Shown piece after piece: positions 1 to 47,344 of a DNA stretch of 64,000 nt. A model generated the notes under the pieces. It ran no database searches. It had not been told where the DNA came from and worked only from the letters and a program-made list of their open reading frames with translations. How positions within the stretch are numbered: position 1 is the stretch's first letter; every line of letters starts with the position of its first letter. The DNA is from Candidatus Staskawiczbacteria bacterium. Lineage in GTDB: Bacteria; Patescibacteriota; Minisyncoccia; Minisyncoccales; Staskawiczbacteraceae. Location: NCBI GenBank assembly GCA_041661545.1, contig JBAZUH010000001.1, forward strand, positions 275,877 to 339,876. Reading direction: 5' to 3'. The position numbers were made by a program, and so were the translations under genes.

Positions 1-262
1 GGGGTTTTCTGCTATATTCAACCTCAACCCTAATTCTCTGAATCAATGCCTCCCTCTTGGCGGTTTCGTCCGCAGGAGCAGGCTCTTCTTTCAGCGGAAC
101 AAATGCCACGCAATCTTTGCCTGCAATCCTTCTAGCTGTGATGCCCACAGGAAATGCTCGGAAAGAACGTGACGTTGACGTTGACAAAACTAGCGGCAAA
201 TCTGGGCCCCCAAGCAACTGCCAAGCAATTGTATGAGTGGTCGGATAGTCTTCCAATTCCAT
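1..262 (-). CDS. partial ORF (5' part; continues past left window edge), unknown product
   Basis: ATG (plus 'cat' 260-262). The frame stays open to position 1 (MELEDYPTTHTIAWQLLGG...). GC-rich like the adjacent pyrF. Absent from the ORF track because it has no stop in the window. Confidence 0.3.
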   Translation of the reverse strand, partial: MELEDYPTTHTIAWQLLGGPDLPLVLSTSTSRSFRAFPVGITARRIAGKDCVAFVPLKEEPAPADETAKREALIQRIRVEVEYSRKP

Positions 263-297
263 GATTTGTTTTCTTCTCCCGTTCCTAGTTGGTTTGG

Positions 298-1173
298 TTA
301 TTTCGGAATTGCCGAGTTAATTTGGTCACGGAGGGTTCGAGCTGCGAAAGCAGAATCTTCGGCAAAAATAATTCCCGATGAAGAATTCATGGCCATTGAA
401 CCATAACCGGCCCAAGCAGCGCGCACTGTTTCTCCAACAAATCCGCCCTGTGTGCCAATACCCGGAATCAAAAACCACAATTTATTACCAACAAGTTCGC
501 GTGCACGAACTAAATGCTTCGCATAAATATCGCCCGTGCCCTTACGTTTCTCGTAAGCTGCAGCCATTACCAGGCCAGCGCTTGAGCCAACCTTTAGAAT
601 AGCTGCCCAATTCAAAATACAATCGGCATAATGTTCCCAGCTGGGCCGGCCATTTACCATTAAGATGTCTTGAACTTGCCGAGCCTTTGGATTGCTGGTA
701 TAGCACAAACCAACCAACCCCTTGCTGTCGGGATTATCTACATCAACCAAGGCTTCCATTGTATCCATACCCATATAAGGCGAAAAGGTAATGCCGTCGG
801 CATTTTGACCCCTAGCACTCAAATGAGCTTGACGATACATCTCTTGCGTACGAGCAATGTCGCCACGCTTAGCGTCAAGCAAAACTGGAACTCCGGGGTG
901 CTCTTCATGGATATACCGAATCGCATCTTTAAGGCTCTCTGCCCCACCCGGGAGCGCTTCCCAAAACGCCGAATTGGGCTTATACATGCACGTATATGGC
1001 TCCGTTTCTTCAACAGCACTCAACATCCAATAATAAACGCTTTCTGCATCGGTGCGGTGGCGTGCTACGAAACGCTTGGGCATTTTTTCCAAAACTGGGT
1101 CTAAGCCCACACAAACTAGGCTGTTTACAGCCTTTTGCCGTTCGGCTAGTATTTGCCTGAATCCCTTTTTCAT
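298..1173 (-). CDS. pyrF: orotidine 5'-phosphate decarboxylase, type 2
   Basis: Motifs LVCVGLDP, KPNSAFWE, LLDAKRGDIARTQ, SPYMG, TSNP and PGIGTQGG match long-form OMP decarboxylase. Visibly GC-rich compared with the backbone. Confidence 0.8.
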   Translation of the reverse strand: MKKGFRQILAERQKAVNSLVCVGLDPVLEKMPKRFVARHRTDAESVYYWMLSAVEETEPYTCMYKPNSAFWEALPGGAESLKDAIRYIHEEHPGVPVLLDAKRGDIARTQEMYRQAHLSARGQNADGITFSPYMGMDTMEALVDVDNPDSKGLVGLCYTSNPKARQVQDILMVNGRPSWEHYADCILNWAAILKVGSSAGLVMAAAYEKRKGTGDIYAKHLVRARELVGNKLWFLIPGIGTQGGFVGETVRAAWAGYGSMAMNSSSGIIFAEDSAFAARTLRDQINSAIPK

Positions 1174-1284
1174 GATTTTGGTTTCTTTGGTTTCTTTGTC
1201 AAAGTTCGTGTTGTTCCAGCGCTTTATACCTAAAAGCTTAAAACTGGTTAGTTTATACTAACAATAAAAAATAAAAAGTCAATG

Positions 1285-1494
1285 CTACCCCTTGATTAGC
1301 TTATACTCAGACCCGTGATGAACTAATTTATATATAATACCCATGTGGTCTTCAAATGTTGCAGACCCATGACTAAATGCATGGTCAAAAAAAACTTTGG
1401 CTTCTTCTGCATTAATTTCATATATTAAATATCTTATACCCTTACTAACAGTTGCGTCGTGCTCAACTATGTGCCCCTTGATTCTTGTTTTCAT
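1285..1494 (-). CDS. hypothetical small protein
   Basis: 69-aa ORF whose start overlaps the stop of the upstream DUF167 gene by 4 nt (ATGA coupling). No recognisable motif. Confidence 0.45.
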   Translation of the reverse strand: MKTRIKGHIVEHDATVSKGIRYLIYEINAEEAKVFFDHAFSHGSATFEDHMGIIYKLVHHGSEYKLIKG

Positions 1495-1766
1495 AATATT
1501 TCTATTATTTTATTTCTTGATGTATAACCACTTATAATTTTAACATTTGCTGTTCCAGTTTTAAAATATACAGCTAAGGCATTTCTAATTGCCTCGTTAG
1601 CTTTTCCTTTTACCGGAGGTTCTTTAACCCACACCTCAAAACAAGCATCTATTTTTTTCACCCCGTTAAATAATTCCGCCGAAGACGGAATTGCCCCTTC
1701 GGGGCATTTAACAGGGTAAATTTTCTCCTCTCTAGCCCCCGGCTTTGCTTTTATATTTATTTTCAT
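1491..1766 (-). CDS. DUF167 (YggU-like) family protein
   Basis: KPGAREEKI...PPVKGKANEAI...V.IISGYTSRNKII pattern, typical of the YggU/DUF167 family. Confidence 0.7.
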   Translation of the reverse strand: MKINIKAKPGAREEKIYPVKCPEGAIPSSAELFNGVKKIDACFEVWVKEPPVKGKANEAIRNALAVYFKTGTANVKIISGYTSRNKIIEIL

Positions 1767-1775
1767 AAAGTAAAT

Positions 1776-1911
1776 AGCGAGGGCATTTTGCGAAAGAAAC
1801 GATTACGCAGGTGCCCCGTTGTGGGCGCCGAGTTCCAAGCGCGTTTGAAATTGTGTAAATTTAACTACAATTTCAAACGACGCTGTGTTTCTGAAGTAAA
1901 ATGCCCGAGCG
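1776..1911. repeat. family-1 nested palindromic element (REP/RPE-like)
   Basis: Ends are AGCGAGGGCATTTTGCGAAAGAAACG...CGTTTCTGAAGTAAAATGCCCGAGCG. The inner perfect hairpin is GTTTGAAATTGT...ACAATTTCAAAC. It abuts the stop codon of the 1912..3228 gene. Confidence 0.8.
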
Positions 1912-3228
1912 TTATATAACGACAGCTTCTCCTCTACCAATTAAGTCTGTTTCTTTGCCTTGAACTAATATTGCCTGCTCATCTGTAATTATTTTTAAAT
2001 TCTTAAATCTTTTTTTAGGGTTTTTTATCTTTTGTTTTATAATTTCTGCATGTTCTGGCAAATAGTGGCAAAAAATATCAAACGGAACAAGGCCTAACCC
2101 TTTTAAATTTTTTAACTTTACTATATTTTTGTCACCATCTTCGCCCCAGCCAGCTGTTTGTATAGTTTTTCCCGCAACCATACTCCCGGCCGAAACTCCA
2201 ATATAAACCTTTCCTTCTTTCAATAATTTTTTTATTATTCTTTCAAAGTTACAAGCTCTCATTGATTTTAATAAATAAAAAGTGTTTCCGCCTGCAACAA
2301 AAATAATATCTTTCATTTCTATTAAACTCATCACTTCTGATTCTTTTTTTCCATCTATATCAATTTCTTCCACATTAAAGCCCATCTCATCTCTCATAAT
2401 AATCAAGTCATTCTTTAAATAATCTAAATTTTCTTGTGGTTTTGCGGCTGTTGTTATAAAAGCTACCGTAATATCGTAGGCTGGTTTTGTTAAAAGTTTT
2501 GTTATTTCATCCCGCATAGACACCATGCCCGTTGAAGTCAACAATAAGGTTTTGGCCATATTGTGCTTTATGATATTTTTTACTAACCCTATTAAATAAT
2601 TTATCAAGGCTATAATTATTAATAACGCTCCAACTACACCCACACCAGCTATGCCAAATGGTGTTAGAAAAAATTGTAAAACCGATGTTTTAAAAAATAC
2701 TACTTTTAATAAAGGCAATTGCCAATAAATATTTAAAATTGATTGCACGTCAAAAGACTCTGTTTTGCCTACAGTTAAAACATATTTTCCTAAATTATCT
2801 GAAGAATAAACTGTTATTTTATATTTTCCAGCTAAAACATTTTCTTCTAATTCTGGGCCCTTAAAATAATAATCTCTGCTAAATTCTTCATAAAATTGTT
2901 GCCAATCAAATTTGCTTCCGTCTAAAGAATATATTTTCTCTCCTTGTGCAGAAAAAACATCTACTGAATACCTGCCATCTATATTAGAATGTGCTGGAAC
3001 CAAAAGATTTATGTATAATACAAAGTCTTTATCAGAATCTATAAAATAATCACGACTCACGCCCCTTAATTCATCATAAAAAGCTTGAGATAATTCTGGA
3101 TTTTTTATTTGAATATCTCCTGCTTGAGTGTAAATAATTGCAGGCTGGTGTGCTAATACAAAACTTGGAACAAAAAAACAACTTAAAGAAAATAAAAAAA
3201 TAACTAAAAATAAAGTTAATTTATTCAT
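1912..3228 (-). CDS. membrane protein with C-terminal peptidase S51 (dipeptidase E-like) domain
   Basis: N-terminal signal peptide and mid-protein TM segments. The C-terminal half has LLLTSTG...FITTAA...IIFVAGGNTFYLL...YIGVSAGSMVAG, typical of the S51 family. Confidence 0.65.
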   Translation of the reverse strand: MNKLTLFLVIFLFSLSCFFVPSFVLAHQPAIIYTQAGDIQIKNPELSQAFYDELRGVSRDYFIDSDKDFVLYINLLVPAHSNIDGRYSVDVFSAQGEKIYSLDGSKFDWQQFYEEFSRDYYFKGPELEENVLAGKYKITVYSSDNLGKYVLTVGKTESFDVQSILNIYWQLPLLKVVFFKTSVLQFFLTPFGIAGVGVVGALLIIIALINYLIGLVKNIIKHNMAKTLLLTSTGMVSMRDEITKLLTKPAYDITVAFITTAAKPQENLDYLKNDLIIMRDEMGFNVEEIDIDGKKESEVMSLIEMKDIIFVAGGNTFYLLKSMRACNFERIIKKLLKEGKVYIGVSAGSMVAGKTIQTAGWGEDGDKNIVKLKNLKGLGLVPFDIFCHYLPEHAEIIKQKIKNPKKRFKNLKIITDEQAILVQGKETDLIGRGEAVVI

Positions 3229-3229
3229 A

Positions 3230-3991
3230 TTAAAATACTCTATGACTGCAACTACAAACGTAACAGTCTAATGCGCATTCGCAACACCTGTAACAAAGAA
3301 ATGGCCTGCACTGACATTTATCTTTTTGCTTCATTTCTCTGCTACATTTTTTACATTTTAATATAATGCTTGGTTGTACAAATTTTTTGGGCGCTTCTTG
3401 GTATGATTCGGGTAATATGGTGCTTTTATACATTGTTCCATGACCAGGAATTATAAAATCTGCTATTTTTAAAATCATATCTCTGCTTTCTTTTAATTTT
3501 ACTGGGTTAGACGCATATGCATCGTCATGCGGATCTTTAGGAAAGTCTTCTTTCCAAAACACATCTCCGCATATTGCCACTTTTCCCTGTTCTGTATTAA
3601 CTAAAAGAGTAATACCTGTATAATCGTGCCCAGGAGTACGTAAAATTTTTATATTATCTGTAAAATTTTCCGACCAATCTTCTGAAGTATTTTTATTCCA
3701 CAAAGCAAAATATTCTAAAGTTTTAGCATCAGGAAACATGCCTATGTTTCTATAATGGTCAATATGTGAATGTGTTATACAAACAACATTAACATCTTTT
3801 ACTGACAAATTTTCTTTATTTAGAGCGTCTATTAGCAATTGTTGACTTTCTAAAACTCCTGGGTCAACCACCATTACAATATCTCCATCACGCACCAATG
3901 TAATGGTTGGCTGGGTTTTCTCTTCGCCAGTATCACCTTCAGAACCGGCGTTTGTGTAGCCCTCTAATAATATTTTTACTTGTGCTACCAT
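3230..3991 (-). CDS. MBL-fold metallo-hydrolase with Cys-rich C-terminal tail
   Basis: THSHIDHYRN (HxHxDH) plus downstream PGHD and PGHG. The last ~42 aa contain 13 Cys (CKKCSREMKQKDKCQCRPFLCYRCCECALDCYVCSCSH). Confidence 0.8.
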   Translation of the reverse strand: MVAQVKILLEGYTNAGSEGDTGEEKTQPTITLVRDGDIVMVVDPGVLESQQLLIDALNKENLSVKDVNVVCITHSHIDHYRNIGMFPDAKTLEYFALWNKNTSEDWSENFTDNIKILRTPGHDYTGITLLVNTEQGKVAICGDVFWKEDFPKDPHDDAYASNPVKLKESRDMILKIADFIIPGHGTMYKSTILPESYQEAPKKFVQPSIILKCKKCSREMKQKDKCQCRPFLCYRCCECALDCYVCSCSHRVF

Positions 3992-3998
3992 ATTTTTT

Positions 3999-4544
3999 TT
4001 AATTTAGCATCCAAATAATAAAATTTAAAAATCCTGCAAAAGAAACCCACAAAATATATGGCGCCAATAATAAAGCTGAAATTTTAGACACTCTGTAAAA
4101 ATTTATAATTGTAAATACTATAGCAACCCAAAGCATTAACAAAATAAAAAAAGCTGCACCAGGAGAGTGCATGCCAAAAAATACTATCGACCACAAAATA
4201 TTCAAAATAAGCTGAATTGAAAAAATTAAAATAAGGTTAGCTTTTTGCCAAGAGCCTGTTAAAAACTTTTCTGACAAAGAATTCCATGGTTTTTTTCCTT
4301 TTAAATTTAATTTATTCTGGGGCTTCCAATTATTGTTCCAAACTAAATATAAAGAAATTCCCATTAATATAAATAAAGTTGTCCAAACTGGGCCAAAAAT
4401 CCAATTTGGCGGATTAAAAAAGGGCTTGTTTAGCCCGCTATACCAATTACGTATTTCTGATACTGTAAATACAGAACCAACTACACCTGCTAATTCACAA
4501 ATAATAATACTTATAACTAATTTTACAATGTTATTATATTTCAT
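3999..4544 (-). CDS. tspO: TspO/MBR family tryptophan-rich sensory protein
   Basis: WYSGLNKPFFNPPNWIFGPVWTTLFILMG and five hydrophobic helices. Confidence 0.8.
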   Translation of the reverse strand: MKYNNIVKLVISIIICELAGVVGSVFTVSEIRNWYSGLNKPFFNPPNWIFGPVWTTLFILMGISLYLVWNNNWKPQNKLNLKGKKPWNSLSEKFLTGSWQKANLILIFSIQLILNILWSIVFFGMHSPGAAFFILLMLWVAIVFTIINFYRVSKISALLLAPYILWVSFAGFLNFIIWMLN

Positions 4545-4565
4545 ATTATTTATTTTAACATATTG

Positions 4566-4637
4566 TGGGCGCGGAAGGAATCGGACCTTCGACCTCTGTC
4601 TTATCAGGACAGCGTTCTACCACTGAACTACGCGCCC
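4566..4637 (-). tRNA. tRNA-Ile (anticodon GAU)
   Basis: The reverse complement folds as a cloverleaf: GGGCGCG/TA/GTTC-AGTGGTA-GAAC/G/CTGTC-CTGATAA-GACAG/AGGTC/GAAGG-TCCGATT-CCTTC/CGCGCCC/A. No encoded CCA. The T-loop reads TCCGATT (C at position 55). Confidence 0.9.
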
Positions 4638-4685
4638 GTATTCTTAAGATTTTAACAAAAAAAACCATTTATTGCAAATATTAAT

Positions 4686-5095
4686 ATAAAAAAAGAGGGC
4701 TACACGAGTGTGTAGCCATGGCGAACGGGTTTAGGTGATGAGGAAGAGGTCTGAAAGACGGTAAGTGGATTGTAAATGATCTAAAAGATCCGGACGGCAG
4801 CAGGCAGAGCAGGGCGCGCTGAACAAATTTACGCGGTGAGTCCAGCGAACCCTTGGCGCTCAAGCCTGCCACCGTCCATTGGGAATAGTCAAAGCCATAT
4901 ACGGAGGACGATCCCCCCAGACAAGCCCCCGAGAGCCATTGACTTTTCCGAAATCGTTCAGGTCGGATGACGAATTATGAACAAAGCATACAGCCCTGAC
5001 AGAGGCGAAGCACCACCGAACGCAGTGCCACTTGTGCTCATATCTCGCTAACCGGCCTGAAAACTATTTACTATTCAAATAAACAATTTTCAGAA
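4686..5095 (-). ncRNA. rnpB: ~400-nt GC-rich structured RNA; best guess RNase P RNA (identity uncertain)
   Basis: About 50% GC in an AT-rich context. It contains a 13-bp helix (GACGGUGGCAGGC/GCCUGCUGCCGUC) enclosing nested helices, and UUCG-type hairpins. It ends in the intrinsic terminator GGCUACAC-ACUC-GUGUAGCC plus a U-run. Loose resemblance to RNase P: GAGCACAAGUGG...UAGAUCAUUUACAAUCCACUUAC with AAGUGG/CCACUU (P4-like) pairing, and AGGCUUGAGCG. Other conserved RNase P blocks were not recognised. Confidence 0.45.
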
Positions 5096-5140
5096 CAGTT
5101 AGAAGGGCCAGAACAACTTAACAATATCAAAAAAACAAAT

Positions 5141-6553
5141 TTAGGTCAACTTCTTTTCCATTTCTTGTGCAATAGCCAGTATTTTATTTTCTTCAAAATG
5201 ATTTCCTATAATTTGCAGTCCAACCGGCAAACCAGCTTCTGTTTTTCCTGCAGGCATTGATAAACCAGGCAAACCAGCTAATTTTAAAGGAATTGTATAA
5301 ATATCTGCTAAATACATTAAAAGTGGATCGTCTAACTTTTCACCCAACTTAAAAGCGGGAAATGGTGACACTGGGCAAAATAACAAATCAACTTTTTCAA
5401 ATGCTTTTGAAAAATCTTGACGAACCAACTGTCTAACCTCCTGTGCTTTTTTATAGTAAGCATCATAATATCCTGAAGATAAGCTATAGGTTCCCAACAT
5501 AATTCTTCTTTTTATTTCTGTACCAAATCCATGTCCTTTACTTTTTAGGTAAACATCCAATAAATCTCTTCCCTTCTCTGATAATCCATATTTTATTCCA
5601 TCAAGGCGCGCTAAATTTGCTGAAATTTCTGATGGACCAATAATATAATAACAGGCCAATGCATACTCTGTGCTAGGCAAGCTAATTTCTATAATTTTCG
5701 CGCCAGCACTTTCGGCTTTTTTAATTGCATTTCTAATTATCTTTTCAACTTCGGGCTCTAATCCTTTAGCAAAATATTCTTTTGGCACACCAATTTTTAA
5801 TCCTTCTAAATTTATTTTTAATTCCTCAAATTTATAATCAACTGATGTTGCATCCATTTTATCTTTTCCAGAAATAGCTTCAAAAACAATTTTACAATCT
5901 TCAACATTTTTTGCTATAGGACCTATTTGATCTAAAGATGAAGCATGTGCAACTAAACCATATCTTGATACAGCGCCATATGTTGGAGAAAATCCAACAA
6001 TACCACAAAAAGAAGCGGGCTGTCGTATCGACCCGCCAGTGTCAGAACCCAATGCATAAATTGATTCACCTGCGGTGACAGCTGCTACCGACCCGGAAGA
6101 TGTTCCACCAGGAACCCGTGTTTTATCGTGTGGATTTTTTGTAGCGCCGAATACTGATGTTTCTCCTGATGCACCCATAGCACTATCGTCTAAATTTGCT
6201 TTTCCTAGAAATACAGCTCCTTCTGCTTTTAACCTTGCTATAACTGTAGCATCATATGGTGCCACATAATTTTCTAAAATTTTTGAAGCAGCTGTGCATT
6301 TTATATCTTTAATTAAAATATTATCTTTTATAGCACATGGAATACCACAAAGCATGCCAAAATCACCTGTCTTAATTTTTTTATCTGCCTCTTCTGCCTG
6401 CTGTAACGCCAATTCTTCTGCAACAGTTATAAAAGTATTTAAATCACTCTTTTTTATTTTTTCTAAATAAGCTTTCGTTAAATCAACCGAAGTAAAATCT
6501 CCATTTTTAAGACCTTGGTGGGCTTGTTTAATTGTTAAATTAGTCAAATTCAT
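5141..6553 (-). CDS. gatA: Asp/Glu-tRNA amidotransferase subunit A
   Basis: Amidase signature GGTSSGSVAAV...GSDTGGSIRQPA. Directly downstream of gatC. Confidence 0.95.
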   Translation of the reverse strand: MNLTNLTIKQAHQGLKNGDFTSVDLTKAYLEKIKKSDLNTFITVAEELALQQAEEADKKIKTGDFGMLCGIPCAIKDNILIKDIKCTAASKILENYVAPYDATVIARLKAEGAVFLGKANLDDSAMGASGETSVFGATKNPHDKTRVPGGTSSGSVAAVTAGESIYALGSDTGGSIRQPASFCGIVGFSPTYGAVSRYGLVAHASSLDQIGPIAKNVEDCKIVFEAISGKDKMDATSVDYKFEELKINLEGLKIGVPKEYFAKGLEPEVEKIIRNAIKKAESAGAKIIEISLPSTEYALACYYIIGPSEISANLARLDGIKYGLSEKGRDLLDVYLKSKGHGFGTEIKRRIMLGTYSLSSGYYDAYYKKAQEVRQLVRQDFSKAFEKVDLLFCPVSPFPAFKLGEKLDDPLLMYLADIYTIPLKLAGLPGLSMPAGKTEAGLPVGLQIIGNHFEENKILAIAQEMEKKLT

Positions 6554-6584
6554 TGAAAATTAAAAATTTAAAATTGAAAATTAG

Positions 6585-6884
6585 TTAAAGCACGGCTTTA
6601 ACTTTTATATACCCATCTTTTTTATCTGGAAAACCTGCCATCAACCTGTCTACTGTTCCCGCATTTCTTGGCAAAACCTCATCTGTCCTGGTCGCATTTA
6701 AATTTGCTATTCCATTATTCCGTGGAATATTGGAATAGTTAGCTTTGGGTTTTGGGGCGGATTTTAATAAATCAAAATAATCTAAAATTTCTGACAGGTC
6801 TTTCTGCATTTTTTCTGTTTCCTGTTCTGTTAATTCTAACCTAGCTAATTTAGCAATTTTTTCTACCTCTTTTTTAGATATCAT
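6585..6884 (-). CDS. gatC: Asp/Glu-tRNA amidotransferase subunit C
   Basis: MISKKEVEKIAKLARLELTEQE...ILDYFDLL pattern, 99 aa, upstream of gatA. Confidence 0.9.
   Translation of the reverse strand: MISKKEVEKIAKLARLELTEQETEKMQKDLSEILDYFDLLKSAPKPKANYSNIPRNNGIANLNATRTDEVLPRNAGTVDRLMAGFPDKKDGYIKVKAVL
6707..6742. repeat. family-2 palindromic element copy inside gatC coding sequence
   Basis: CTATTCCATTATTCCGTGGAATATTGGAATAGTTAG differs at 2 positions from the intergenic 39-mers at 10450 and 10789. It is read in frame as NYSNIPRNNGI. Confidence 0.8.
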
Positions 6885-6921
6885 TAGATTATAATAGCAA
6901 AAATTTATAATGATGCAAATC

Positions 6922-6950
6922 TTGACACCGCCAGCAATTATGTTAGTATT
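6922..6950 (+). promoter_or_regulatory. putative sigma70-type promoter of the Cys-rich mini-gene islet
   Basis: TTGACA at 6922-6927 followed 16 nt later by TAGTAT (or TATTAT at 19 nt). Confidence 0.4.
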
Positions 6951-6995
6951 ATTCTACTGAAGGTCTTGAACCTTTCCAACTCAACCCCGACTAAC

Positions 6996-7286
6996 ATGAA
7001 AGCATCTTTGTTAAAATTATTCCGCGCGCTACTCCAAGCGCTGCATGGTTTCTTTTGTGGACATACTTTTGCAATATCTTCAAATACATGCAACACTTGT
7101 GGCGTAGAATTATGCGGAAAAAGGCTCATTGAAGGTTTCTCTTTCGCCTGTAATTTACCAAAGGGCCATAAAGGGCAATGCGAAAATACTTTTGGGCAAG
7201 ATGCAATTTCAAGCTATCTCAGGGTTAATGGCGGAGGCCCTAAAATCAACGACAGTCGCGTCACCCATGAAACCACAAACTCATAG
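6996..7286 (+). CDS. small Cys/His-rich protein A (zinc-ribbon-like), GC-rich islet
   Basis: The ORF is open from 6966 (TTG), with the first ATG at 6996. Motif: CGHTFAISSNTCNTCGVELCGKRLIEGFSFACNLPKGHKGQCEN. The start codon is uncertain. Confidence 0.5.
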   Translation: MKASLLKLFRALLQALHGFFCGHTFAISSNTCNTCGVELCGKRLIEGFSFACNLPKGHKGQCENTFGQDAISSYLRVNGGGPKINDSRVTHETTNS

Positions 7287-7497
7287 ACACGCGCGACTTG
7301 GAAATCTTGCACATTGTGAAAGCTGTGGCGCTCCAATGTGCCTATCCCAACATCCATATCTGCTAGTGTGCTGCACGCGAGTAAGAGGACACTCAGGACA
7401 GTGCAACAACCCAAACTTTCTCAGCTTCACGAGCTGGGATCGACCAAGCGAGCAACACCCGAACCTCCCCACGCGTCTTGAACATCCAGCCTTTTAA
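7267..7497 (+). CDS. small Cys/His-rich protein B, paralog of protein A
   Basis: Motif HCESCGAPMCLSQHPYLLVCCTRVRGHSGQCNN repeats the C-x2-C-G-x3-C...C-x5-G-H-x-G-Q-C-x-N pattern of protein A, but in the +1 frame. The ATG at 7267 overlaps the end of A. The ORF is open from 7129. Confidence 0.5.
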   Translation: MKPQTHRHARLGNLAHCESCGAPMCLSQHPYLLVCCTRVRGHSGQCNNPNFLSFTSWDRPSEQHPNLPTRLEHPAF

Positions 7498-7586
7498 CTG
7501 ATTATTCTTGATTGTTTACCGCGCATGCATCGAATTTCTATTGGAAAACGATGCTTTTTTTATACTACAATACTCTTGATATAGCC

Positions 7587-7619
7587 AAAAAAATATCTCG
7601 CGAAAACGAGATATTTTTA
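7587..7619. terminator. bidirectional intrinsic terminator
   Basis: A-run, then ATATCTCG-CGAAAA-CGAGATAT, then T-run. Lies downstream of mreB (minus) and of the plus-strand islet. Confidence 0.6.
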
Positions 7620-39801: not shown

Positions 39802-40998
39802 TTATTTGACAATTTTGGTTACAACTCCGGCTCCGACTGTTTTTCCTCCTTCTCTAATAGCAAATTTACTCTTTTCTTCCAAAGCAACTGGCACAATTAA
39901 TTTAACTTTTAATTGAGCTGTGTCGCCAGGCATTACCATTTCTGTTCCTTCTGGCAATGTTACGTCTCCAGTAATATCAGATGTTCTAATATAAAGTTGT
40001 GGTTTGTATCCTGAGAAAAATGGAGTATGTCTTCCTCCTTCATCTTTAGATAAAACATAAACTTCTGCATCAAATTCTGTGTGAGGAGTAATAGAGCCTG
40101 GTTTGCAAAGAACTTGACCTCTTTCAATGTCTTCTTTTTTCAAACCTCTTAACAAAATTCCAACGTTATCTCCTGCCCTTCCTTCGTCTAAGCTCTTTTG
40201 GAACATTTCAACTGAAACAACAACTGCTTTTTGAGTTGGTCTTAATCCAACAATTTCAATTTCTTCGTTTGGATGAATAACTCCTCTTTCAATTCTTCCG
40301 GTTGCAACTGTTCCTCTTCCTTCAATAGAGAATACATCTTCAATAGCCATTGAAAATGGTTTGTCTAATTCTCTTGCTGGTTCGGGAATATAATTATCGC
40401 AAGCATCTAATAATTCTATAACTGGTTTAGCTGCTGGGTCATCGGCTGAAGTTGCTTCTAATGCTTTTGTAGCAGAACCTCTTATAATAGGAGTTTCATC
40501 TCCTGGGTAACCGTTTTTCTTTAATAATTCTCTAATTTCTGATTCAACTAAATCCAAAATTTCTGGATCATCAACCATATCGCATTTGTTCATAAATACC
40601 AATAATGATGGCAATCCAACTTGTCTAGCTAAAAGAATGTGCTCTTTTGTTTGTGGCATTGGGCCGTCTGGCGCAGATACTAAAAGAATACCTCCGTCCA
40701 TTTGAGCGGCTCCTGTAATCATGTTTTTAATATAGTCGGCGTGACCTGGGCAGTCAATTAAAGCATAGTGCCTTTTTGGTGTTTCACACTCTAAGTGAGT
40801 AATAGAAATGGTAACTCCTCTAGATTTTTCTTCTGGTGAAGCATCAATTTGATCAACGTTTCTGTCGGATGATTTCATTCCTCGCAATTTTGAAACTTTC
40901 ATAATTGCTGCAGACAATGTAGTTTTTCCGTGGTCAACGTGACCAATTGTACCTATGTTTACGTGAGGTTTAGACCTCTCAAATTTTTCTGTTGCCAT
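39802..40998 (-). CDS. tuf: elongation factor Tu
   Basis: [22 protein letters not shown] and SA(T)KAL GTPase motifs. 398 aa. Confidence 0.98.
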
Positions 40999-41219
40999 TT
41001 TTACTTTTTGTCTGACGCCATAGACCTGGCGACAGATATTATTAATTTATTATTTTTTTATTTATTAATTTTTTTTAACGTATTATTATATTATTATATT
41101 ATTTTATATAAGTCAATAGTTTCTATGACAAATTACAAAACATTGACTTTATTAACATTTCAATTATACTTTATTATCAGCTATTTGACAATATACACCC
41201 ACAAAAAAGAGATAATGTC

Positions 41220-41540
41220 GTGAACAAACAAAACTTGCCCGTTACAAATCTTCGCTGCTTAAGAGACCCACATTTCTTGAAACATCCATGGCATGCGGGC
41301 CATTGTTCGTATGTTGGTTCGATAGATCCAAGAAGGGCTCACGAGCTACGCATGCGGAATAAACGCGCTGGCGGAATGGCCTTCGCAATGGTCGAAAGGC
41401 TTGAAAAATCAACCTGGGGTCCAGGGATCAAAATTAACGCCTCGCAAAGAAATTTTATAATTCGGGAAATCAAAGCGCTCGTGATGAGCACTTTTCCGCC
41501 AATGCCACCAACTAATCTCGAAGAAAGGAACACAAAATGA
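41220..41540 (+). CDS. islet ORF1, basic small protein (GTG start)
   Basis: 106-aa ORF in the ~50% GC cassette. Its stop overlaps the ORF2 start (ATGA). The tail is ...STFPPMPPTNLEE. ACACCCACAAA lies 25 nt upstream. Confidence 0.45.
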   Translation: MNKQNLPVTNLRCLRDPHFLKHPWHAGHCSYVGSIDPRRAHELRMRNKRAGGMAFAMVERLEKSTWGPGIKINASQRNFIIREIKALVMSTFPPMPPTNLEERNTK

Positions 41541-41869
41541 GAGACCGACTTATTGCTATCGCACGGAAGGCAGTTGGAAATACACGATTTATAGTAATTT
41601 CGCAAAAGGGTGATTACCTACGCGTCACACTAGATGGGTTTGATGTTGGAACTTTTATAAAACGTGGAGGCGGCGGCTATAGCTCAGATAACATGTTACT
41701 AGCCGAATCCATTCTCGGCTTAGAGCACCCACCCGAACCCGCACCCGCACCAGCACCAGCCGAATCAATCGAATTCGACGACGTTAGCGTCGAAGTGGGA
41801 GAAGGACTATTTGATGGAATCCCAGAGTGGGGTGAAGGCGAAGACGAGGACGCCGACGAAATTCCGTGA
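41537..41869 (+). CDS. islet ORF2, small protein with Pro-rich linker and acidic tail
   Basis: Preceded by GAAAGGAACACAAAATG. ...LGLEHPPEPAPAPAPAESIEFDDVSVEVGEG...EGEDEDADEIP. Confidence 0.55.
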   Translation: MRDRLIAIARKAVGNTRFIVISQKGDYLRVTLDGFDVGTFIKRGGGGYSSDNMLLAESILGLEHPPEPAPAPAPAESIEFDDVSVEVGEGLFDGIPEWGEGEDEDADEIP

Positions 41870-41908
41870 AATTTCAAACACCCACAAATTAGCGAAAAGA
41901 AAATCAAA

Positions 41909-42109
41909 ATGGCGGAAGAAAAAGTAACTGTTAAAATTAGACGAAGGAACAGAATCGCCGGAATTTCTGTTGCCAACGACATGATTAAATCCGGGTGGAC
42001 AGTTTCAGGGTTCGAACTTGTCGTTCCTCAAGGAACCAACATATACTTTGAACGGGAAATTCCCGACCCCCCAACAAGCTTCCCAGACTGCAATCAGAGG
42101 GGCCGGTAG
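41909..42109 (+). CDS. islet ORF3, small DUF4177-like module protein
   Basis: ...MIKSGWTVSGFELVVPQGTNIYFEREIPDPPTSFP. Module shared with ORF4 and ORF5. ACACCCACAAA lies 31 nt upstream. Confidence 0.55.
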   Translation: MAEEKVTVKIRRRNRIAGISVANDMIKSGWTVSGFELVVPQGTNIYFEREIPDPPTSFPDCNQRGR

Positions 42110-42147
42110 TATAATTACCAAACCAACGATCTGAAAGGAATACGGAA

Positions 42148-42360
42148 ATGAAATACGATCCAATATTGCTTAGCAGCGATGATATGAATAGATTCAGAAC
42201 AGATCTAATAAATATGGGAGAGGAAGGTTATCACACGATAGGCTTCCACGCAATCTCTAACTCTAGCGGAGTCACGTTGTATGCCCTAATGGAAAAGGAA
42301 CTTCCCAGCGACCCTCCTAACAACCTTCCCAAGCCACACCCCGAAGAACCCGTGGTATAA
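42148..42360 (+). CDS. islet ORF4, small DUF4177-like module protein
   Basis: Preceded by GAAAGGAATACGGAAATG. ...INMGEEGYHTIGFHAISNSSGVTLYALMEKELPSDPPNNLP. Confidence 0.55.
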   Translation: MKYDPILLSSDDMNRFRTDLINMGEEGYHTIGFHAISNSSGVTLYALMEKELPSDPPNNLPKPHPEEPVV

Positions 42361-42403
42361 CAATTAACTACTAATCCAGTAGAAAGCCGAAAGGAACACG
42401 AAA

Positions 42404-42868
42404 ATGAAAAAGTGGGAATATACAATTTTCTTTTTCCCTAAAGAAAAGATAGAATCAATACAAGGCCTCAGCAAATTTGGAAAAGAAGGCTGGCGAGTGA
42501 TACACGTAAGTGAAAACATGTTCGCCGCTTTACTCGAGCGGGAAATTCCCGAAACGGAAGAACCCGCGCCAAAAGCTCGCAAGAAGCTAACCGAACTTCC
42601 TGCCGAACAACTAGCGCCGGCGCCAGATTCTCCGGGCCAATGCAAATTGAATATGGATGAACAACCCCATCTAGATTGGTCCGCATCCAAACCAGCGCCG
42701 GCCGAATCAGTCGGCTTAGACGTCGCTGGCCACGACGAACATGGTTGCACATACGGACCAGTGGCCAAAACCACACCGCAAGCGCCGGCTTCTCCGGATA
42801 AAACCGGCGCGTATCCAGCATTTCCAAGCTGGGAAGAAGACGACGACAATCTTCGAGAAAATCAGTGA
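42404..42868 (+). CDS. islet ORF5, DUF4177-like N-terminal module plus long disordered Pro/Ala/acidic tail
   Basis: Preceded by GAAAGGAACACGAAAATG. MKKWEYTIFFFPKEKIESIQGLSKFGKEGWRVIHVSENMFAALLEREIPETEEP. The tail contains KPAPAESVGLDV, as in ORF2. Confidence 0.6.
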   Translation: MKKWEYTIFFFPKEKIESIQGLSKFGKEGWRVIHVSENMFAALLEREIPETEEPAPKARKKLTELPAEQLAPAPDSPGQCKLNMDEQPHLDWSASKPAPAESVGLDVAGHDEHGCTYGPVAKTTPQAPASPDKTGAYPAFPSWEEDDDNLRENQ

Positions 42869-42875
42869 ACCCTAT

Positions 42876-42901
42876 GCTCCAAAATTTGGAGCTCTTTTTT
42901 T
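42876..42901 (+). terminator. intrinsic terminator of the plus-strand cassette
   Basis: GCTCCAAA-A-TTTGGAGC followed by TCTTTTTTT, 8 nt after the ORF5 stop. Confidence 0.75.
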
Positions 42902-42919
42902 GCAAAAAAATTATGCCTT

Positions 42920-42948
42920 AAAAAAAATCCGCCGTAAAGCGGATTTTT
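42920..42948. terminator. bidirectional intrinsic terminator immediately downstream of fusA
   Basis: A-run, then ATCCGC-CGTAAA-GCGGAT, then T-run. On the minus strand it follows the fusA stop by about 25 nt. Confidence 0.75.
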
Positions 42949-42970
42949 AGTTTCAAAAATATTATTTTAA

Positions 42971-45046
42971 TTACTTTCTTTTTCCGTCGATAATTTCTTG
43001 AGCTATATTAGCAGGAACTTGTTCATAACTATTAAATTCCATATTAAAACTTGCTCGGCCCTCTGTTAAAGATCTTATAGATGTAGCGTATCCAAATGTT
43101 TCTGACAAAGGCACCTCAGCATCTACAACTTTCATGCCAGCTCTTTCTGAAGTTTCTTTAATTTGTCCTCTTCGTGAGCTTATATCAGAAATAACTTGTC
43201 CAAAAAAGTCTTCTGGGGTTACAACTTCCATTTTCATAACTGGCTCTAATATAACAGGCTTGGCAGCTTTGGCAGCTTTTTGAAATGCCATTGAACCTGC
43301 AATTTTAAAAGCAAATTCAGATGAGTCAACTTCGTGGAAAGATCCATCATATAAAGTAACCTCAACATCAACCATTGGATATCCAGCAACAACCCCCTTA
43401 TCCATAGCTTCTACAACTCCTTTTTCAACTGGTTTAATAAATTCTTTTGGAATTGAACCTCCTCTAATTTCATCTACAAATTCAAATCCAGCTCCCCTTT
43501 CTTTTGGCTTAACAGTTAACATAACGTGACCGTATTGTCCTTTACCACCCGATTGTCTGGCATATTTTTCTTCTCCGTTAGCTTCCATAGTAATTGTTTC
43601 TCTATAAGCTACTTGAGGTTTTCCATAATTAGCTTCAACGTGAAACTCTCTTCTCAATCTATCTGCAATAATATCTAAGTGCAATTCTCCCATACCAGAA
43701 ATAATTGTTTCGCCGGTTTCCAAATCTTCTTTAATTCTAAAGGTTGGATCTTCTTCTGTAAGTTTTCTAATAGACATAATAAGTTTTTCTTGGTCAACTT
43801 TTGTTTTTGGTTCAACCCTAATTCCAATAACTGGTTCTGGAAATACAATTTTTTCTAAAATAACTGGAGCTGATTTGTCGCACAATGTATGCCCAGTGCT
43901 GGTTGCTTTTAACCCAACTGTAGCTCCAATTTCTCCTGCATAAATAATATCAAGTTCTTGCCTTTCATCGGCGTGCATTCTTAAAATTCTAGCAATTCTT
44001 TCTTGCTCTCCGGTATTTGCATTCAAAACATAACTACCTTTTTGTAAAAATCCAGAATAAACTCTAAAAAAGGTTAATGTTCCAACATATGGATCGGTTG
44101 CAATTTTAAACACCAAAGCTGAAAATGGTTCTGTGTCTGAAGAGTTTCTTTCTATTACAGCCCCTGTTTTTGGGTCTGTTCCTTGCTGAGCTGGAACTTC
44201 TAATGGTGAAGGCAATAATTCTACAACTGCATCTAAAATTGTCTGCACTCCCTTGTTTTTTAAAGCACTTCCACAAAAAACAGGAATTAATTTATAATTT
44301 AAAACTGATTTTCTTAAAACATTTTTAATTTCTTCTGTTGTTATTTCTTTTCCTTCTAAAAATTTCTCTGTTAATGCATCATCTTCTCCGGCAATTTTTT
44401 CAATCATTTTTTTGTGCCATACATCGGCTTCGGCTTTCCATTCTTCGGGAATTTCTTTTTCAACTATATTAATTCCTTTTTCTCCTTCAAAATAAAGAGC
44501 TTTCATTTTCATTAAATCAACAACTCCGGCTAAATTTTCTTCTGTTCCCATTGGAAAAGAAACTGCAACTGCATTTGGAGTTAATTTTGTTAAAATTGAT
44601 TGAAAACTTTTATCAAAAGAAGCTCCCATTCTATCTAGCTTGTTTACAAAGCAAATTCTAGGAACATTATATTTATCAGCTTGTCTCCAAACTGTTTCAG
44701 ACTGTGGTTCTACTCCGGCAACACCATCAAACACAACCACTGCTCCGTCTAAAACTCTTAATGAGCGTTGAACTTCGGCGGTAAAATCAATGTGACCAGG
44801 TGTGTCAATTAAGTTTATTTGATGATCTCTCCAATACATAGTTGTAGCAGCAGAGGTAATTGTTATACCCCTTTCTCTTTCTTGAACCATCCAATCCATA
44901 ACTGCCTCTCCTTCGTGAACTTCTCCAATTTTGTGAGAAACTCCCGTATAAAAAAGCAAACGCTCGGAAAAAGTAGTTTTTCCTGCGTCTATATGAGCAA
45001 TAATACCTATGTTTCTTAATTTATCTAAAGGATGTTGTCTTGACAT
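42971..45046 (-). CDS. fusA: elongation factor G
   Basis: [22 protein letters not shown] and NKLD GTPase motifs. 691 aa. Confidence 0.98.
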
Positions 45047-45049
45047 AAA

Positions 45050-45376
45050 TTATTTTTTAAAAATTCTTTTAAATATTCCGTATAATATACCTATAACCAC
45101 TAAACCTAGACCAAACCAAGAAAAATAAAGGCCATTTTTCATTGGAAAAGTTACTAAAAATAATACCGCACCAAATAGAGCGATAATAAAAGAAACAAAA
45201 TCAAGTAAAGTGGCAATCCCTAAAATTAAAAATCCTGGCGTAAGAAAGAAAATCAAAAATGCTCCTCCAAATACACCGCCGGGCCCACCCACATTAGCAA
45301 AACCTAAAACTAATCCCAAAATCAAAGATAATACAGATAATACAAAAAAAATAATAGAAAATATTTTTTTGGTCAT
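45050..45376 (-). CDS. small polytopic membrane protein inserted between rpsG and fusA
   Basis: 108 aa with 3-4 Gly/Phe/Leu-rich hydrophobic helices. Tightly packed: 3 nt before fusA and 5 nt after rpsG. Confidence 0.6.
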   Translation of the reverse strand: MTKKIFSIIFFVLSVLSLILGLVLGFANVGGPGGVFGGAFLIFFLTPGFLILGIATLLDFVSFIIALFGAVLFLVTFPMKNGLYFSWFGLGLVVIGILYGIFKRIFKK

Positions 45377-45381
45377 ATATA

Positions 45382-45846
45382 TTAGCGGGCGAAGCGAGCA
45401 AAGGCCTTGTTAGCTTCGGCCATTCTGTGAGTATCTGCTTTCTTTTTGATAGCACTTCCTTGATTATTTACACAATCCATTAATTCTGCGGCTAATTTTT
45501 CTGCCATTGGCTTTCCTTTTTTACCGCGAGCTGCATCTAAAATCCATTTTGTTGCTAAAGCTAATCTTCTTTCTCCTCTAACTTCCATAGGAACCTGATA
45601 AGTTGCGCCACCAATTCTTTTTGGTTTAACTTCTAAAAGAGGTGAAGCATTCTCAATGGCCAATTTAAAAATTTCTAAAGGTTCTTTTTTGGTTTTTTCT
45701 TTTATTATATCAAAAGCATCATAAACAATTTTTTGAGCAATTGTTTTCTTACCGCTTTTCATGACTTTGTTTATAAACTGAGATATAACTATTTCGTTAT
45801 AAACTCCGTCTGGTGATATTTTGTGTTTTTTATATGCGCGCCTCAT
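45382..45846 (-). CDS. rpsG: 30S ribosomal protein S7
   Basis: ...GKK..A..IVY.AF..I........PLE.F..A.EN..P..EV...[11 protein letters not shown] pattern. Confidence 0.95.
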
Positions 45847-45856
45847 CGAACGTTTT

Positions 45857-45930
45857 TAAAGTTTGTAAAGTTTGTAAAGTTTATAAAGTTTTGCGAACTT
45901 GATGAACTTGAAACTTGATGAACTTGATAA
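45857..45930. repeat. short tandem repeats in the rpsL-rpsG spacer
   Basis: (AAAGTTTGT)x2, then AAAGTTTAT AAAGTTTTG, followed by (GAACTTGAT)-type units of roughly opposite polarity. Confidence 0.7.
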
Positions 45931-46341
45931 CTATTTTGTTTTCTTTGTACCGTATCTACTTCTTGTTTGTTTTCTATTTTCAACTCCTGCTGTATCTAAC
46001 ACTCCTCTAACAATATGATATCTTACACCTGGTAAATCTTTAACCCTTCCTCCTCTAATTAAAACAATAGAGTGCTCTTGCAAATTGTGTCCTTCTCCTG
46101 GAATATAGGCTGTAACTTCCATTCCGTTTGATAATTTAACCCTAGCCACTTTTCTTAAAGCTGAGTTAGGTTTTTTTGGTGTTTGAGTAAACACTTTAAT
46201 GCATACTCCTCTTTTAAATGGCGAAGAATAATATGATGTTTTGTTTCTTAAAACATTAAAACCACGATGCAGTGCAACGTTCTTTTTTCCGCTTTTTTTA
46301 TTTTTTCTATTCTTTTTAACTAATTGATGAATTGTAGGCAT
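45931..46341 (-). CDS. rpsL: 30S ribosomal protein S12
   Basis: [10 protein letters not shown]...[53 protein letters not shown]. The start was moved to the ATG at 46341. Confidence 0.97.
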
Positions 46342-46435
46342 TTGTTTTTTATAATAAAATAAACGCAAATTGCGTATGTGATTAGTAGTTTAGCAAAAAT
46401 TTTTTATAATGTCAATAACTTTGTGTATGTTTATA

Positions 46436-47344
46436 TTATTTTGGGCTTAATTTATAAACTTTTCGATTGGCTAAGATGCTTTTTATTTTATCGGCATCAG
46501 CTCCGGTTTTTTCGATAGAAGCCAAATCGTCTGCAACAAGCGACTGGCTGACAACTTCGGCCTCAAAGCCCGTTTCTTCCAAAAAATTATCTACATCCTG
46601 TTGGTCGACAAATCTGCAACTTGCAAAATCCCGTCCGGTTGCATTAAACATATTGTCTAGGAACTTTTTAACTGCTGGGCTTCCAGTTAACGCTCCAATA
46701 TTGCCGGAGCCCGAACCAAAATCCGCTGAAATCCAAACCCCGCCCTTTTCCTCTAAAATACGCCTTATATTTTTAGCAAAAATTACTTTTTCTTGGCGAT
46801 TAAAATACGACATCAACCCTTCGTTGCAAATAGCAACCGGTCCGTCAAAACTTTTTGCAACAAACGACATTTGTTCAGAATCTAGGGCGTTTACTGTAGC
46901 AAAATGTAAATTGGCTCTTGCCTGGCTCTCTTTAGAAAGAATTCCTTCTATTATTCTTTGTTTTTCAGCAAGTATTCCTGGCAAATCGCTTTCCACATAA
47001 TTAACCAAAGGATCTTCTGTCATCACCAAACCACGGGGAGACACCCCCGAAGCAATTTCCAAAACATTTTTACATCCGGATTTTTCAATCATTGCATTGA
47101 TCATTTTGTATCTTGCTTCGCTTGGTGGAGCAAGAAATGAAATCACTGCTTTTCTATCTGCGTCACTTAACTCATTAAACATTTCCCCAGAATTTGTGGC
47201 ATCTGAAATCTCCTGCGAATACGGAATGTCGCTAAAAGAGCGAAAATACGCCACAGCTTTTGCTGTTGGGCTAATCAATTCCGGGTTGGGTTCATTTTCA
47301 GGAACTGAACGATCTTCTGGCTTTGGTTCAAATATATCAGACAT
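46436..47344 (-). CDS. class I SAM-dependent methyltransferase
   Basis: VLEIASGVSPRG motif I and downstream acidic motif II (ESDLP). GC is intermediate, above the backbone. Confidence 0.6.
   Translation of the reverse strand: MSDIFEPKPEDRSVPENEPNPELISPTAKAVAYFRSFSDIPYSQEISDATNSGEMFNELSDADRKAVISFLAPPSEARYKMINAMIEKSGCKNVLEIASGVSPRGLVMTEDPLVNYVESDLPGILAEKQRIIEGILSKESQARANLHFATVNALDSEQMSFVAKSFDGPVAICNEGLMSYFNRQEKVIFAKNIRRILEEKGGVWISADFGSGSGNIGALTGSPAVKKFLDNMFNATGRDFASCRFVDQQDVDNFLEETGFEAEVVSQSLVADDLASIEKTGADADKIKSILANRKVYKLSPK

Follow-up and report, generated by a model that had tools for sequence, protein, structure and literature searches.

GC-rich islets in an AT-rich housekeeping backbone

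The window studied here, the whole stretch of 64,000 nucleotides taken from contig JBAZUH010000001.1 (positions 275,877 to 339,876) of a Candidatus Staskawiczbacteria bacterium (GenBank assembly GCA_041661545.1), is an AT-rich array of housekeeping genes interrupted by compact GC-rich islets, which include a PurM-like gene, a pyrF operon, a five-gene cassette between tuf and fusA, smaller open reading frames (ORFs) and a non-coding unit beside a tRNA gene. An earlier note made from the letters of this DNA had described such islets and read them as recent horizontal acquisitions from a higher-GC donor. We compared the window genome (W) with a set of 171 fetched loci, designated by L-numbers, from siblings and other members of the candidate phyla radiation (CPR, Patescibacteria); the sibling comparison rests on about 10-20 fragmentary loci. 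The fusA gene of the window is 92% and 91% identical to those of two Candidatus Staskawiczbacteria metagenome-assembled genomes, and 77-89% identical to those of other Staskawiczbacteria-like contigs. The backbone is a typical CPR gene set encoded almost entirely on the minus strand, and comprises gatCA, mreB, proS, an M50 protease gene, frr, holB and murA, the clusters rpsM-rpoA-rplQ and rplM-rpsI, the S10-spc ribosomal genes, and alaS, tpiA, map, adk, secY, tuf, fusA, rpsG and rpsL.

Segmentation with a two-state hidden Markov model (HMM) and sliding GC gave a backbone GC of 0.326 and six islets: 1-1165 (GC 0.485), 4695-5059 (0.542), 7022-7491 (0.487), 12061-12358 (0.550), 17918-19278 (0.449) and 41237-42880 (0.473). 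Measured against backbone windows of the same size, their z-scores are 5.1-9.0, values that none of the backbone windows matches. GC at third codon positions (GC3) has a median of 0.21 in backbone genes (robust standard deviation 0.036) and is 0.18-0.46 higher in the coding islets: 0.44 in pyrF, 0.39 in the PurM-like gene, 0.40-0.48 in the five ORFs of 41220-42868, 0.67 in 12046-12300, 0.46 in 7129-7497 and 0.39 in 16375-16584. The contrast that the earlier note had seen, at GC 0.45-0.55 against 0.326 and GC3 0.39-0.67 against 0.21, thus stands and is statistically supported (z = 5-9). The HMM recovered most of the segments in the note's list; two of them, 16375-16590 and 46436-47344 (GC3 0.32), stand out less and escaped the segmentation. 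The note had listed its segments as additional to the RNA genes; 4695-5059 beside tRNA-Ile, which is not in that list, matches no known RNA gene in Rfam. The note's statement on strands was right: within 1-47344, only the islets at 7.0, 12.0 and 41.2-42.9 kb and the gene of one AT-rich PEGA-domain protein lie on the plus strand, with rpmB and tRNA-Pro just beyond.

Two further HMM calls, 6015-6190 (within gatA) and 63441-64000, are not islets. The GC excess of the latter is driven by amino-acid content, since the ORF there has a GC3 of 0.18 (GC2 0.53). This ORF (62021-64000, minus strand) encodes a large, probably surface, repeat-containing protein with internal repeats of 75-146 nt; its GC2 is likewise 0.53 and its GC3 of 0.18 is backbone-like.

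The PurM-like gene is GC-rich at the same site in siblings

The PurM-like gene (17960-19102, minus strand, 380 aa), labelled 'AIR synthase-related', is monocistronic, with an upstream leader, a strong AAGGAG Shine-Dalgarno (SD) sequence and its own terminator at about 17915-17940. Its product carries the Pfam domains AIRS (PF00586, 32.9 bits) and AIRS_C (PF02769, 37.2 bits), both above cut-off, and its best PDB matches are PurM chains (E = 5e-32, residues 106-369). It thus has both superfamily domains of PurM (AIR synthetase, TIGR00878 / PF00586 + PF02769), but it scores 175.8 bits against the TIGR00878 equivalog, below the cut-off of 236.35 and over residues 102-344 only, and it is monocistronic and outside any pur operon. 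Apart from this gene, the window yielded no identifiable pur gene; in L002, purL lies about 9 kb away. Judged by its domains, the protein is a member of the PurM superfamily, and conversion of formylglycinamidine ribonucleotide to aminoimidazole ribonucleotide in a de novo purine pathway is a candidate activity. Unlike PurM proper, it falls in a clade of its own, strongly conserved, in which all named members come from CPR and are called 'AIR synthase-related protein'. Among 8000 scored matches to the family, all top matches that bear a source name are CPR (Staskawicz-, Nomura-, Doudna-, Wildermuth-, Taylor-, Specht- and Magasanikbacteria, and Paceibacterota), and 17 members from several CPR lineages have a mean column identity of 69%. 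Scans of viral contigs with the protein and with the 17-member alignment found no relatives.

The gene sits in the same place in the siblings L001 and L002, after rpsI and before a PD-(D/E)XK gene, a PEGA-domain gene and murA. The PD-(D/E)XK-family gene follows it in L001 (10698-11378) and L002 (11280-11963) and is missing from W at 17846-17959. Protein identity is 0.75-0.77 between W and either sibling and 0.81 between L001 and L002, the same pattern as for the neighbouring genes. Synonymous sites are saturated like those of the backbone, since conserved residues show a codon identity of 0.41, where codon usage alone predicts 0.33-0.37. The gene is nevertheless GC-rich in both siblings, with a GC3 of 0.45 in L001 and 0.55 in L002 against about 0.30, and it is so in more distant lineages: 0.61 against about 0.45 on a Nomurabacteria contig and 0.89 against about 0.42 on a Magasanikbacteria contig. 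Expressed as the difference from the median of the locus, the GC3 excess is +0.18 in W, +0.15, +0.23, +0.14 and +0.45 in four other genomes, and only +0.05 in a fifth, which is itself 51% GC; the gene is GC-richer than its flanks in five of the six CPR genomes compared. On the Magasanikbacteria contig (L086), an unannotated neighbour of 211 aa (9568-10203, minus strand) has a GC3 of 0.85 against about 0.42, so that the pair forms a two-gene islet.

The expression signals of the gene recur as well, a strong SD and a terminator-like hairpin being found in W, L001, L002 and L085. The leader (19103-19190, minus strand) is common to W, L001 and L002, begins GCACCTTG(A/G)AAA and lies downstream of a promoter whose TTGACA box is clear in the siblings and degenerate in W. 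It has no Rfam match in the window, and it may be regulatory.

Recent acquisition is therefore refuted for this gene, which is GC-rich at the same site in L001 and L002, has diverged there as far as the backbone and is saturated at synonymous sites. The earlier note had named equal composition in relatives as the mark of islets that are not recent, and that is what we find for the PurM-like islet and, in part, for the islet between fusA and tuf. Since amelioration should have erased a foreign signature after such divergence, we take the high GC of the PurM-like gene to be a maintained property of the gene.

A pyrF operon of CPR type

At the left edge of the window lies pyrF (298-1173, minus strand, 291 aa), which matches TIGR02127 (pyrF_sub2; 158.7 bits, cut-off 110.6, residues 5-278) and the Pfam family OMPdecase (PF00215, 79.1 bits). 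It is followed by a 113-aa ORF on the same strand that starts at 262 and runs past the window start, with its first 87 codons in the window. As seen in L167, the islet extends beyond the window as pyrF, the 113-aa gene and a 237-aa gene, then a terminator, and all three genes have a GC of 0.47-0.49. The 237-aa product resembles phosphoribosyltransferases (PRTases) by a motif read by eye and has no Pfam match.

The best non-self match of PyrF is 66% identical, and its named matches are from Patescibacteria or candidate division WS5; the islet thus reads as a GC-rich operon of CPR type. Elsewhere, pyrF stands alone between murL and murD in L168, with a GC3 0.10 above backbone, and L169 has pyrF and a partner gene with a slight GC3 elevation over neighbouring genes. 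GC above that of the respective backbone is also seen for a pair of pyrD and an amidohydrolase (pyrC-like) gene in L090 and for purL in L002.

Small cassettes lie at variable operon boundaries

Between tuf and fusA lies a cassette of five small genes on the plus strand (41220-42868), preceded by a promoter-like site (41143-41170) and closed by a terminator (42876-42892). It encodes I7a (41220-41540, 106 aa), I7b (41537-41869, 110 aa), I7c (41909-42109, 66 aa), I7d (42148-42360, 70 aa) and I7e (42404-42868, 154 aa). Ribosome-binding sites are repeated within the cassette, and a PAPAES-encoding segment is duplicated in I7b and I7e, from which we conclude that the cassette grew by duplication in place. 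Read by eye, I7c, I7d and I7e have in common a DUF4177-like N-terminal pattern and an EREIP motif; in profile searches with DUF4177 (PF13783), I7e reached 12.8 bits against a threshold of 25 (E = 0.15), and I7c and I7d did not match.

The interval between fusA and tuf differs among siblings. It is empty (131-135 bp) in three, including the closest (L004), and measures 0.76-2.3 kb in five in which tuf could be located; in three more, the sequence past fusA runs to the end of the locus. In L005, L010, L014 and L015 the interval holds a gene that resembles I7e or I7c (31-40% identity) and has the same strand as in W. Neither I7a nor I7b has a homolog in any of the 12 sibling loci covering the region. 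A search with I7b matched only itself. Among 1.8 billion representative proteins, I7a has only 13 relatives; they are unnamed small proteins and a repeated domain of a Paenibacillus protein. One of these relatives is flanked by an unannotated 365-aa gene and an AAA_23 gene on a phage-like contig of 58% GC, where gp32 and RecA are also encoded; another stands alone between holB and mreB, on the strand opposite to theirs, in a CPR genome of 50% GC.

Four smaller units occupy other operon boundaries. Two overlapping Cys-rich, zinc-ribbon-like ORFs (6996-7286, 96 aa; 7267-7497, 76 aa; plus strand) follow a promoter-like site at 6922-6949, and their matches to zinc-ribbon families in Pfam are weak. 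No homolog was found in sibling loci spanning the gap between mreB2 and gatC, which is 14-111 bp in six, leaving no room for a gene, and longer in two; in L104 the longer gap holds a different GC-rich ORF. At 12.0 kb, a small hydrophobic ORF (12046-12300, plus strand, 84 aa, GC3 0.67) lies between a promoter-like site at 12015-12043, the best of its region, and a hairpin with a T run at 12310-12365; it is absent from all eight siblings spanning the gap between frr and the M50 gene (8-178 bp). A 69-aa zinc-ribbon protein (16375-16584, minus strand), named 'uncharacterized Zn finger protein' by JGI and followed by its own terminator (16370-16349), is absent from L001 and L002, the two siblings in which the gap between murA and the PEGA gene was examined; L001 has a distant relative (35% identity) after mreB2. 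Finally, a weakly methyltransferase-like gene of 302 aa (46436-47344, minus strand, GC 0.40, GC3 0.32) lies upstream of rpsL. It carries the JGI label 'O-methyltransferase', matches the Pfam families LCM and Methyltransf_25 only at E = 0.04-0.11, has a codon usage near that of the backbone (r = 0.74) and lacks homologs in the 12 sibling loci covering the region, in which the gap between rpsL and the M50-like gene is short in some and long in others.

Sibling loci commonly hold GC-rich small genes, some of them at the same gaps as the islets of W, and all small islet proteins present in the protein collection are singletons at 90% identity. Presence and absence in siblings thus divide the islets: those at 7.0, 12.0, 16.4 and 46.4 kb, together with I7a and I7b, behave as the recent gain proposed in the earlier note would predict, the syntenic PurM-like gene does not, and the DUF4177-like genes are mixed, four siblings having one and three having an empty interval.

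In their compactness, their own promoters and terminators and their orientation opposite to their neighbours, these units resemble phage morons and other small phage accessory genes, as does I7a in having a relative on a phage-like contig. They differ from morons in lying outside any prophage, with no phage structural or integration genes nearby, only marginal PHROG matches and no close match in IMG/VR; scans of viral contigs found no relatives of I7a, I7b or the 302-aa protein.

Variation at operon boundaries also involves AT-rich genes. A membrane protein of 108 aa encoded between rpsG and fusA (45050-45376, minus strand) is AT-rich and without homologs in the sibling loci; the gap itself varies among siblings from 68 bp to 1 kb, and in some it holds GC-rich ORFs. 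The backbone gene murA (15014-16276, minus strand) occupies one fixed locus in two types. The murA genes of W, L088 and L091 are mutually 75-77% identical, and those of L001, L002, L089, L090, L094 and L104 are only 39-43% identical to that of W despite similar backbone distances. The two types at one site reflect in-place replacement or differential loss of paralogs, and the locus lends indirect support to recombination guided by flanking genes.

A candidate structured RNA beside tRNA-Ile

A GC-rich (0.54) structured non-coding unit lies between gatA and tRNA-Ile(GAU) on the minus strand (4688-5075) and has its own terminator (4717-4698). It contains no ORF longer than 63 aa, and its minimum free energy (MFE) of folding is well below that of shuffled sequences (z = -5.4). 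In a search of the whole window against Rfam 15, which gave only tRNAs, 4695-5059 had no match at the gathering threshold or at E <= 1, and at E <= 10 the region 4640-5140 and its counterpart in L087 gave only noise from microRNA models.

That counterpart, a positional homolog in the sibling L087 (2459-2951), also lies between gatA and tRNA-Ile and is also structured (MFE z = -4.4). The nucleotide alignment of the two scores -6.0, against -66.2 (standard deviation 9.0) for shuffled sequences, with no frame-specific protein signal. Searches of the 171 fetched loci with the unit by blastn and nhmmer gave no match. The consensus fold of the two sequences is too poorly aligned to interpret, and two sequences are too few for covariation. 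We regard the unit as a candidate for a CPR RNA, about 370 nt long, that has not been described before. Just past tRNA-Ile, L087, the closest sibling at this site, has a SAM riboswitch (46.7 bits, above the gathering threshold) and then a 365-aa gene read as metK-like (3091-4324); W has neither.

Expression signals and assembly of the islets

Most islets have the look of transcription units of their own. In 1-20000, terminator-like sites exceed expectation (29 against 13.2) and close the islets at 4.7, 16.4 and 17.9 kb, and another closes the end of the islet at 42.9 kb. Promoter-like matches in the same interval occur at chance level (75 against 71.5 expected), a scan that is statistically uninformative in AT-rich DNA; the best of them fall directly upstream of the islets at 12.0 and 7.0 kb. 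The earlier note had credited most islets with a candidate promoter box, a terminator or both; such separate signals are real, with terminator-like sites in excess and promoter-like matches no commoner than chance.

Its claim of a different expression dialect, drawn from the strong SD of the PurM-like gene and the near lack of SD sequences in backbone genes, holds in part. The PurM-like gene has the SD CTAAGGAGA (-8.2 kcal/mol), and I7b, I7d and I7e, three of the five ORFs between tuf and fusA, have GAAAGGAA (-5.9 kcal/mol). No SD was found upstream of tuf and fusA, as the note had said, nor upstream of pyrF and the islets at 7.0, 12.0, 16.4 and 46.4 kb, to which the claim does not extend. Backbone genes mostly lack an SD, and many have a TATAAT-like box only some 7-10 nt before the ATG (upstream of minus-strand genes), which suggests that backbone mRNAs are leaderless or have very short leaders.

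Three islet boundaries were compared with a separate assembly. Contigs of a second assembly, from Logan (run SRR18595301), have 0 mismatches to 40962-43711 and 1-1519 of the window and cross three boundaries: between tuf and the islet, between the islet and fusA, and between pyrF and the AT-rich backbone. Because these contigs are identical across three AT/GC boundaries, the mosaic is not an assembly join, and the breakpoints that the earlier note had considered do not account for these junctions.

Two codon dialects, no mobility genes and no identified donor outside CPR

The enzyme genes (PurM-like and pyrF operon) correlate in codon usage (r = 0.52) and are poor in A and rich in G at third positions; the small-ORF islets correlate among themselves (r = 0.61) and are rich in C there. 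Between the two classes r is only 0.01-0.27. Since the islets use at least two uncorrelated codon dialects, a single donor is ruled out.

No mobility genes were found in the islet ORFs by Pfam, NCBIfam and PHROG scans, in agreement with the earlier note; the best matches related to recombinases or integrases (E = 0.01-0.05) are to the 76-aa zinc-ribbon ORF. Around five islets there are no att-like or terminal inverted repeats, only AT-rich matches at chance level. Only the non-coding unit at 4.7-5.1 kb adjoins tRNA-Ile, and L087 is arranged alike. For none of the islets did the searches point to a donor outside CPR: the named matches of the PurM-like protein are CPR, those of PyrF are Patescibacteria or candidate division WS5, I7b matched only itself, and the relatives of I7a are unnamed small proteins and the Paenibacillus domain. 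The window islets thus have the atypical GC and codon usage of a classical horizontally acquired genomic island but lack mobility genes, att sites or flanking repeats, and homologs in an out-of-clade donor. The proposal of recent acquisition from a higher-GC donor therefore keeps some ground at 7.0, 12.0, 16.4 and 46.4 kb and for I7a and I7b, all absent in siblings, and loses it at the syntenic PurM-like gene.

Further repeats are present in the window. An 80-nt repeat (91% identity) occurs twice between genes of the AT-rich backbone (12979-13058 and 23102-23181), and a palindromic CTATTCCGTTATTCCGCGGAATATTGGAATAG element has three intergenic copies (6707, 10453 and 10791). A 64-nt stretch common to 47965-48028 and 53366-53429 covers the 5' ends and upstream regions of two genes, and the octamer GCCTCGCT is over-represented (6 observed, 0.66 expected).

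Discussion

We propose, with a probability of roughly 0.6, that the islets are a mix of old, vertically inherited nucleotide-metabolism genes, accessory cassettes with fast turnover and a non-coding RNA candidate, and do not stem from a single recent wave of foreign DNA. On this proposal, an AT-drifted, co-oriented and mostly SD-less housekeeping backbone would be broken by three kinds of self-contained transcription units. The first would be nucleotide-metabolism genes of CPR type, that is, the PurM-like gene and the operon of pyrF, the 113-aa gene and the PRTase-like gene; the PurM-like gene would have been at its locus since before W split from its siblings, GC-rich and SD-using across the family. 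The second would be small cassettes of zinc-ribbon-like, DUF4177-like, phage-related and orphan proteins at operon boundaries (fusA|tuf, rpsL|M50-like, mreB2|gatC, frr|M50 and murA|PEGA), with contents that differ between siblings; they would come and go, be replaced and be duplicated in place, probably drawing on a gene pool of CPR and phages. The third would be the structured RNA candidate beside tRNA-Ile. Insertion may need no dedicated mobility genes and proceed, once DNA has been taken up, by recombination that the conserved genes on either side guide. The persistent GC of the enzyme genes may come from selection acting on codon use, from GC-biased conversion or from alleles being replaced repeatedly within CPR.

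Several points weigh against this proposal. Identities of 31-40% between the cassette genes and their sibling counterparts are compatible with independent insertions at one hot spot or with fast divergence of an old resident. GC-richness is no simple marker of accessory genes, because AT-rich window-specific genes exist (45050-45376, 9997-10757). A synonymous-shuffle test for mRNA structure was negative for the PurM-like gene of W (z = +1.3) and for pyrF, and modest in three of four PurM-like relatives (z of -2.5 to -2.9 against -0.8 to -1.6 in controls). The samples are small, with six genomes for the PurM-like gene and three for pyrF, and the site of the pyrF operon is covered by none of the sibling loci obtained. 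Recombination guided by flanks is a presumed route, and there are three candidates for the force that would hold the PurM-like gene GC-rich.

The reading of the earlier note, that all islets are recent, unameliorated transfers from one or more higher-GC donors, we consider unlikely. It would account for the sharp steps in GC and GC3, for the separate promoters, terminators and SD use, and for the absence of the 7.0- and 12.0-kb islets from all compared siblings and of the 16.4-kb islet from the two examined; the self-match of I7b, the small islet proteins that are singletons at 90% and the relative of I7a on a 58%-GC phage-like contig fit it too. It founders on the PurM-like gene, which in siblings is found in synteny, with equal GC-richness and ancient divergence, and whose family spans CPR and has elevated GC in further lineages. 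It also sits poorly with the Patescibacteria and WS5 homologs of pyrF, the DUF4177-like genes in the fusA|tuf gap of four siblings, the two unrelated codon dialects and the lack of any donor outside CPR.

A different history would make the enzyme islets old-looking and compositionally refreshed, their alleles being repeatedly overwritten by recombination with GC-richer CPR relatives, perhaps with GC-biased conversion. The PurM-like family, at 69% mean column identity, is conserved enough to permit recombination across lineages, the neighbouring murA with its two types of about 40% identity at a fixed site speaks for replacement or differential paralog loss nearby, and horizontal gene transfer in Patescibacteria is reported to stay mostly within the phylum (PMC12455944). 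This history is nonetheless improbable in our judgement, as the identities of the PurM-like gene between W, L001 and L002 track those of the backbone, with L001 and L002 the closest pair, the saturated synonymous sites reveal no recently shared allele, and none of the viral contigs scanned carries the gene.

The GC excess could instead be a by-product of function, in structured RNA or in proteins rich in Gly, Ala, Arg and Pro, and have no evolutionary meaning. This describes 63441-64000, where the excess follows amino-acid content (GC2 0.53, GC3 0.18), and could suit the structured non-coding unit at 4695-5059; GC1 and GC2 are also raised in the enzyme islets. It is refuted for the coding islets because their GC3 is raised by 0.18-0.46, which amino-acid content cannot explain, and is as a whole very unlikely. 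GC-rich RNA genes of the kind known from thermophiles were ruled out separately, as most islets are protein-coding with raised GC3. Least credible of all is an artefact of assembly or binning with chimeric joins of AT-rich and GC-richer organisms, which the metagenomic origin of the genome and the abrupt steps in composition might suggest, given the second-assembly contigs without mismatch over three boundaries, the recurrence of this gene order, GC-rich PurM-like gene included, in assemblies of unrelated samples, and islet ends that match terminators or promoter-like sites and not contig ends.

Returning to the proposal of a mix, most of it is ordinary biology for the group, the window being a new example of known islands and hot spots. 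Genomic islands in Patescibacteria have been described, with horizontal transfer mostly within the phylum and some nucleotide-metabolism genes among those transferred (PMC12455944, mSystems 2025). The window islets share with these their atypical composition in a small CPR genome, the signs of exchange within the phylum and the nucleotide-metabolism genes, but they are very small (0.2-2 kb) and lack mobility genes, and the PurM-like gene is vertically inherited yet atypical, so that the logic of island prediction would misread it as a recent transfer.

The variable gaps have a further parallel. Integration hot spots that lie between core genes and lack recognisable mobile elements are familiar from bacterial pangenomes and were reportedly described by Oliveira, Touchon, Cury and Rocha in Nat Commun in 2017. 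The gaps fusA|tuf, rpsL|M50-like and mreB2|gatC similarly hold accessory genes that differ from relative to relative, with no integrase or transposase. In the window, however, the inserted genes exceed the core in GC, the reverse of most bacteria, in which such cargo is AT-richer, and the case is drawn from about 10-20 fragmentary loci with flank-guided recombination as its presumed route.

What is uncommon is a vertically inherited, CPR-wide gene that keeps an atypical composition. We tentatively suggest that the PurM-like gene is held well above host GC and GC3 across CPR by a gene-specific compositional equilibrium, and that other nucleotide-synthesis genes (pyrF/pyrE-like, pyrD/pyrC-like and purL) perhaps behave likewise; this is a possibility that we would not yet favour. 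If it is true, island finders based on composition would systematically misclassify such CPR genes, and if the GC excess persists across more CPR genomes, the maintenance of base composition in individual genes would become testable. The leads to follow are this persistent excess and the unclassified structured RNA candidate beside tRNA-Ile. In AT-rich CPR genomes, atypical composition alone neither dates nor proves transfer, one of the largest islets here being old and inherited vertically. A few intergenic intervals within rigid ribosomal and cell-division clusters would be the places where tiny cassettes turn over without mobile elements, which bears on how ultra-small symbionts gain genes.

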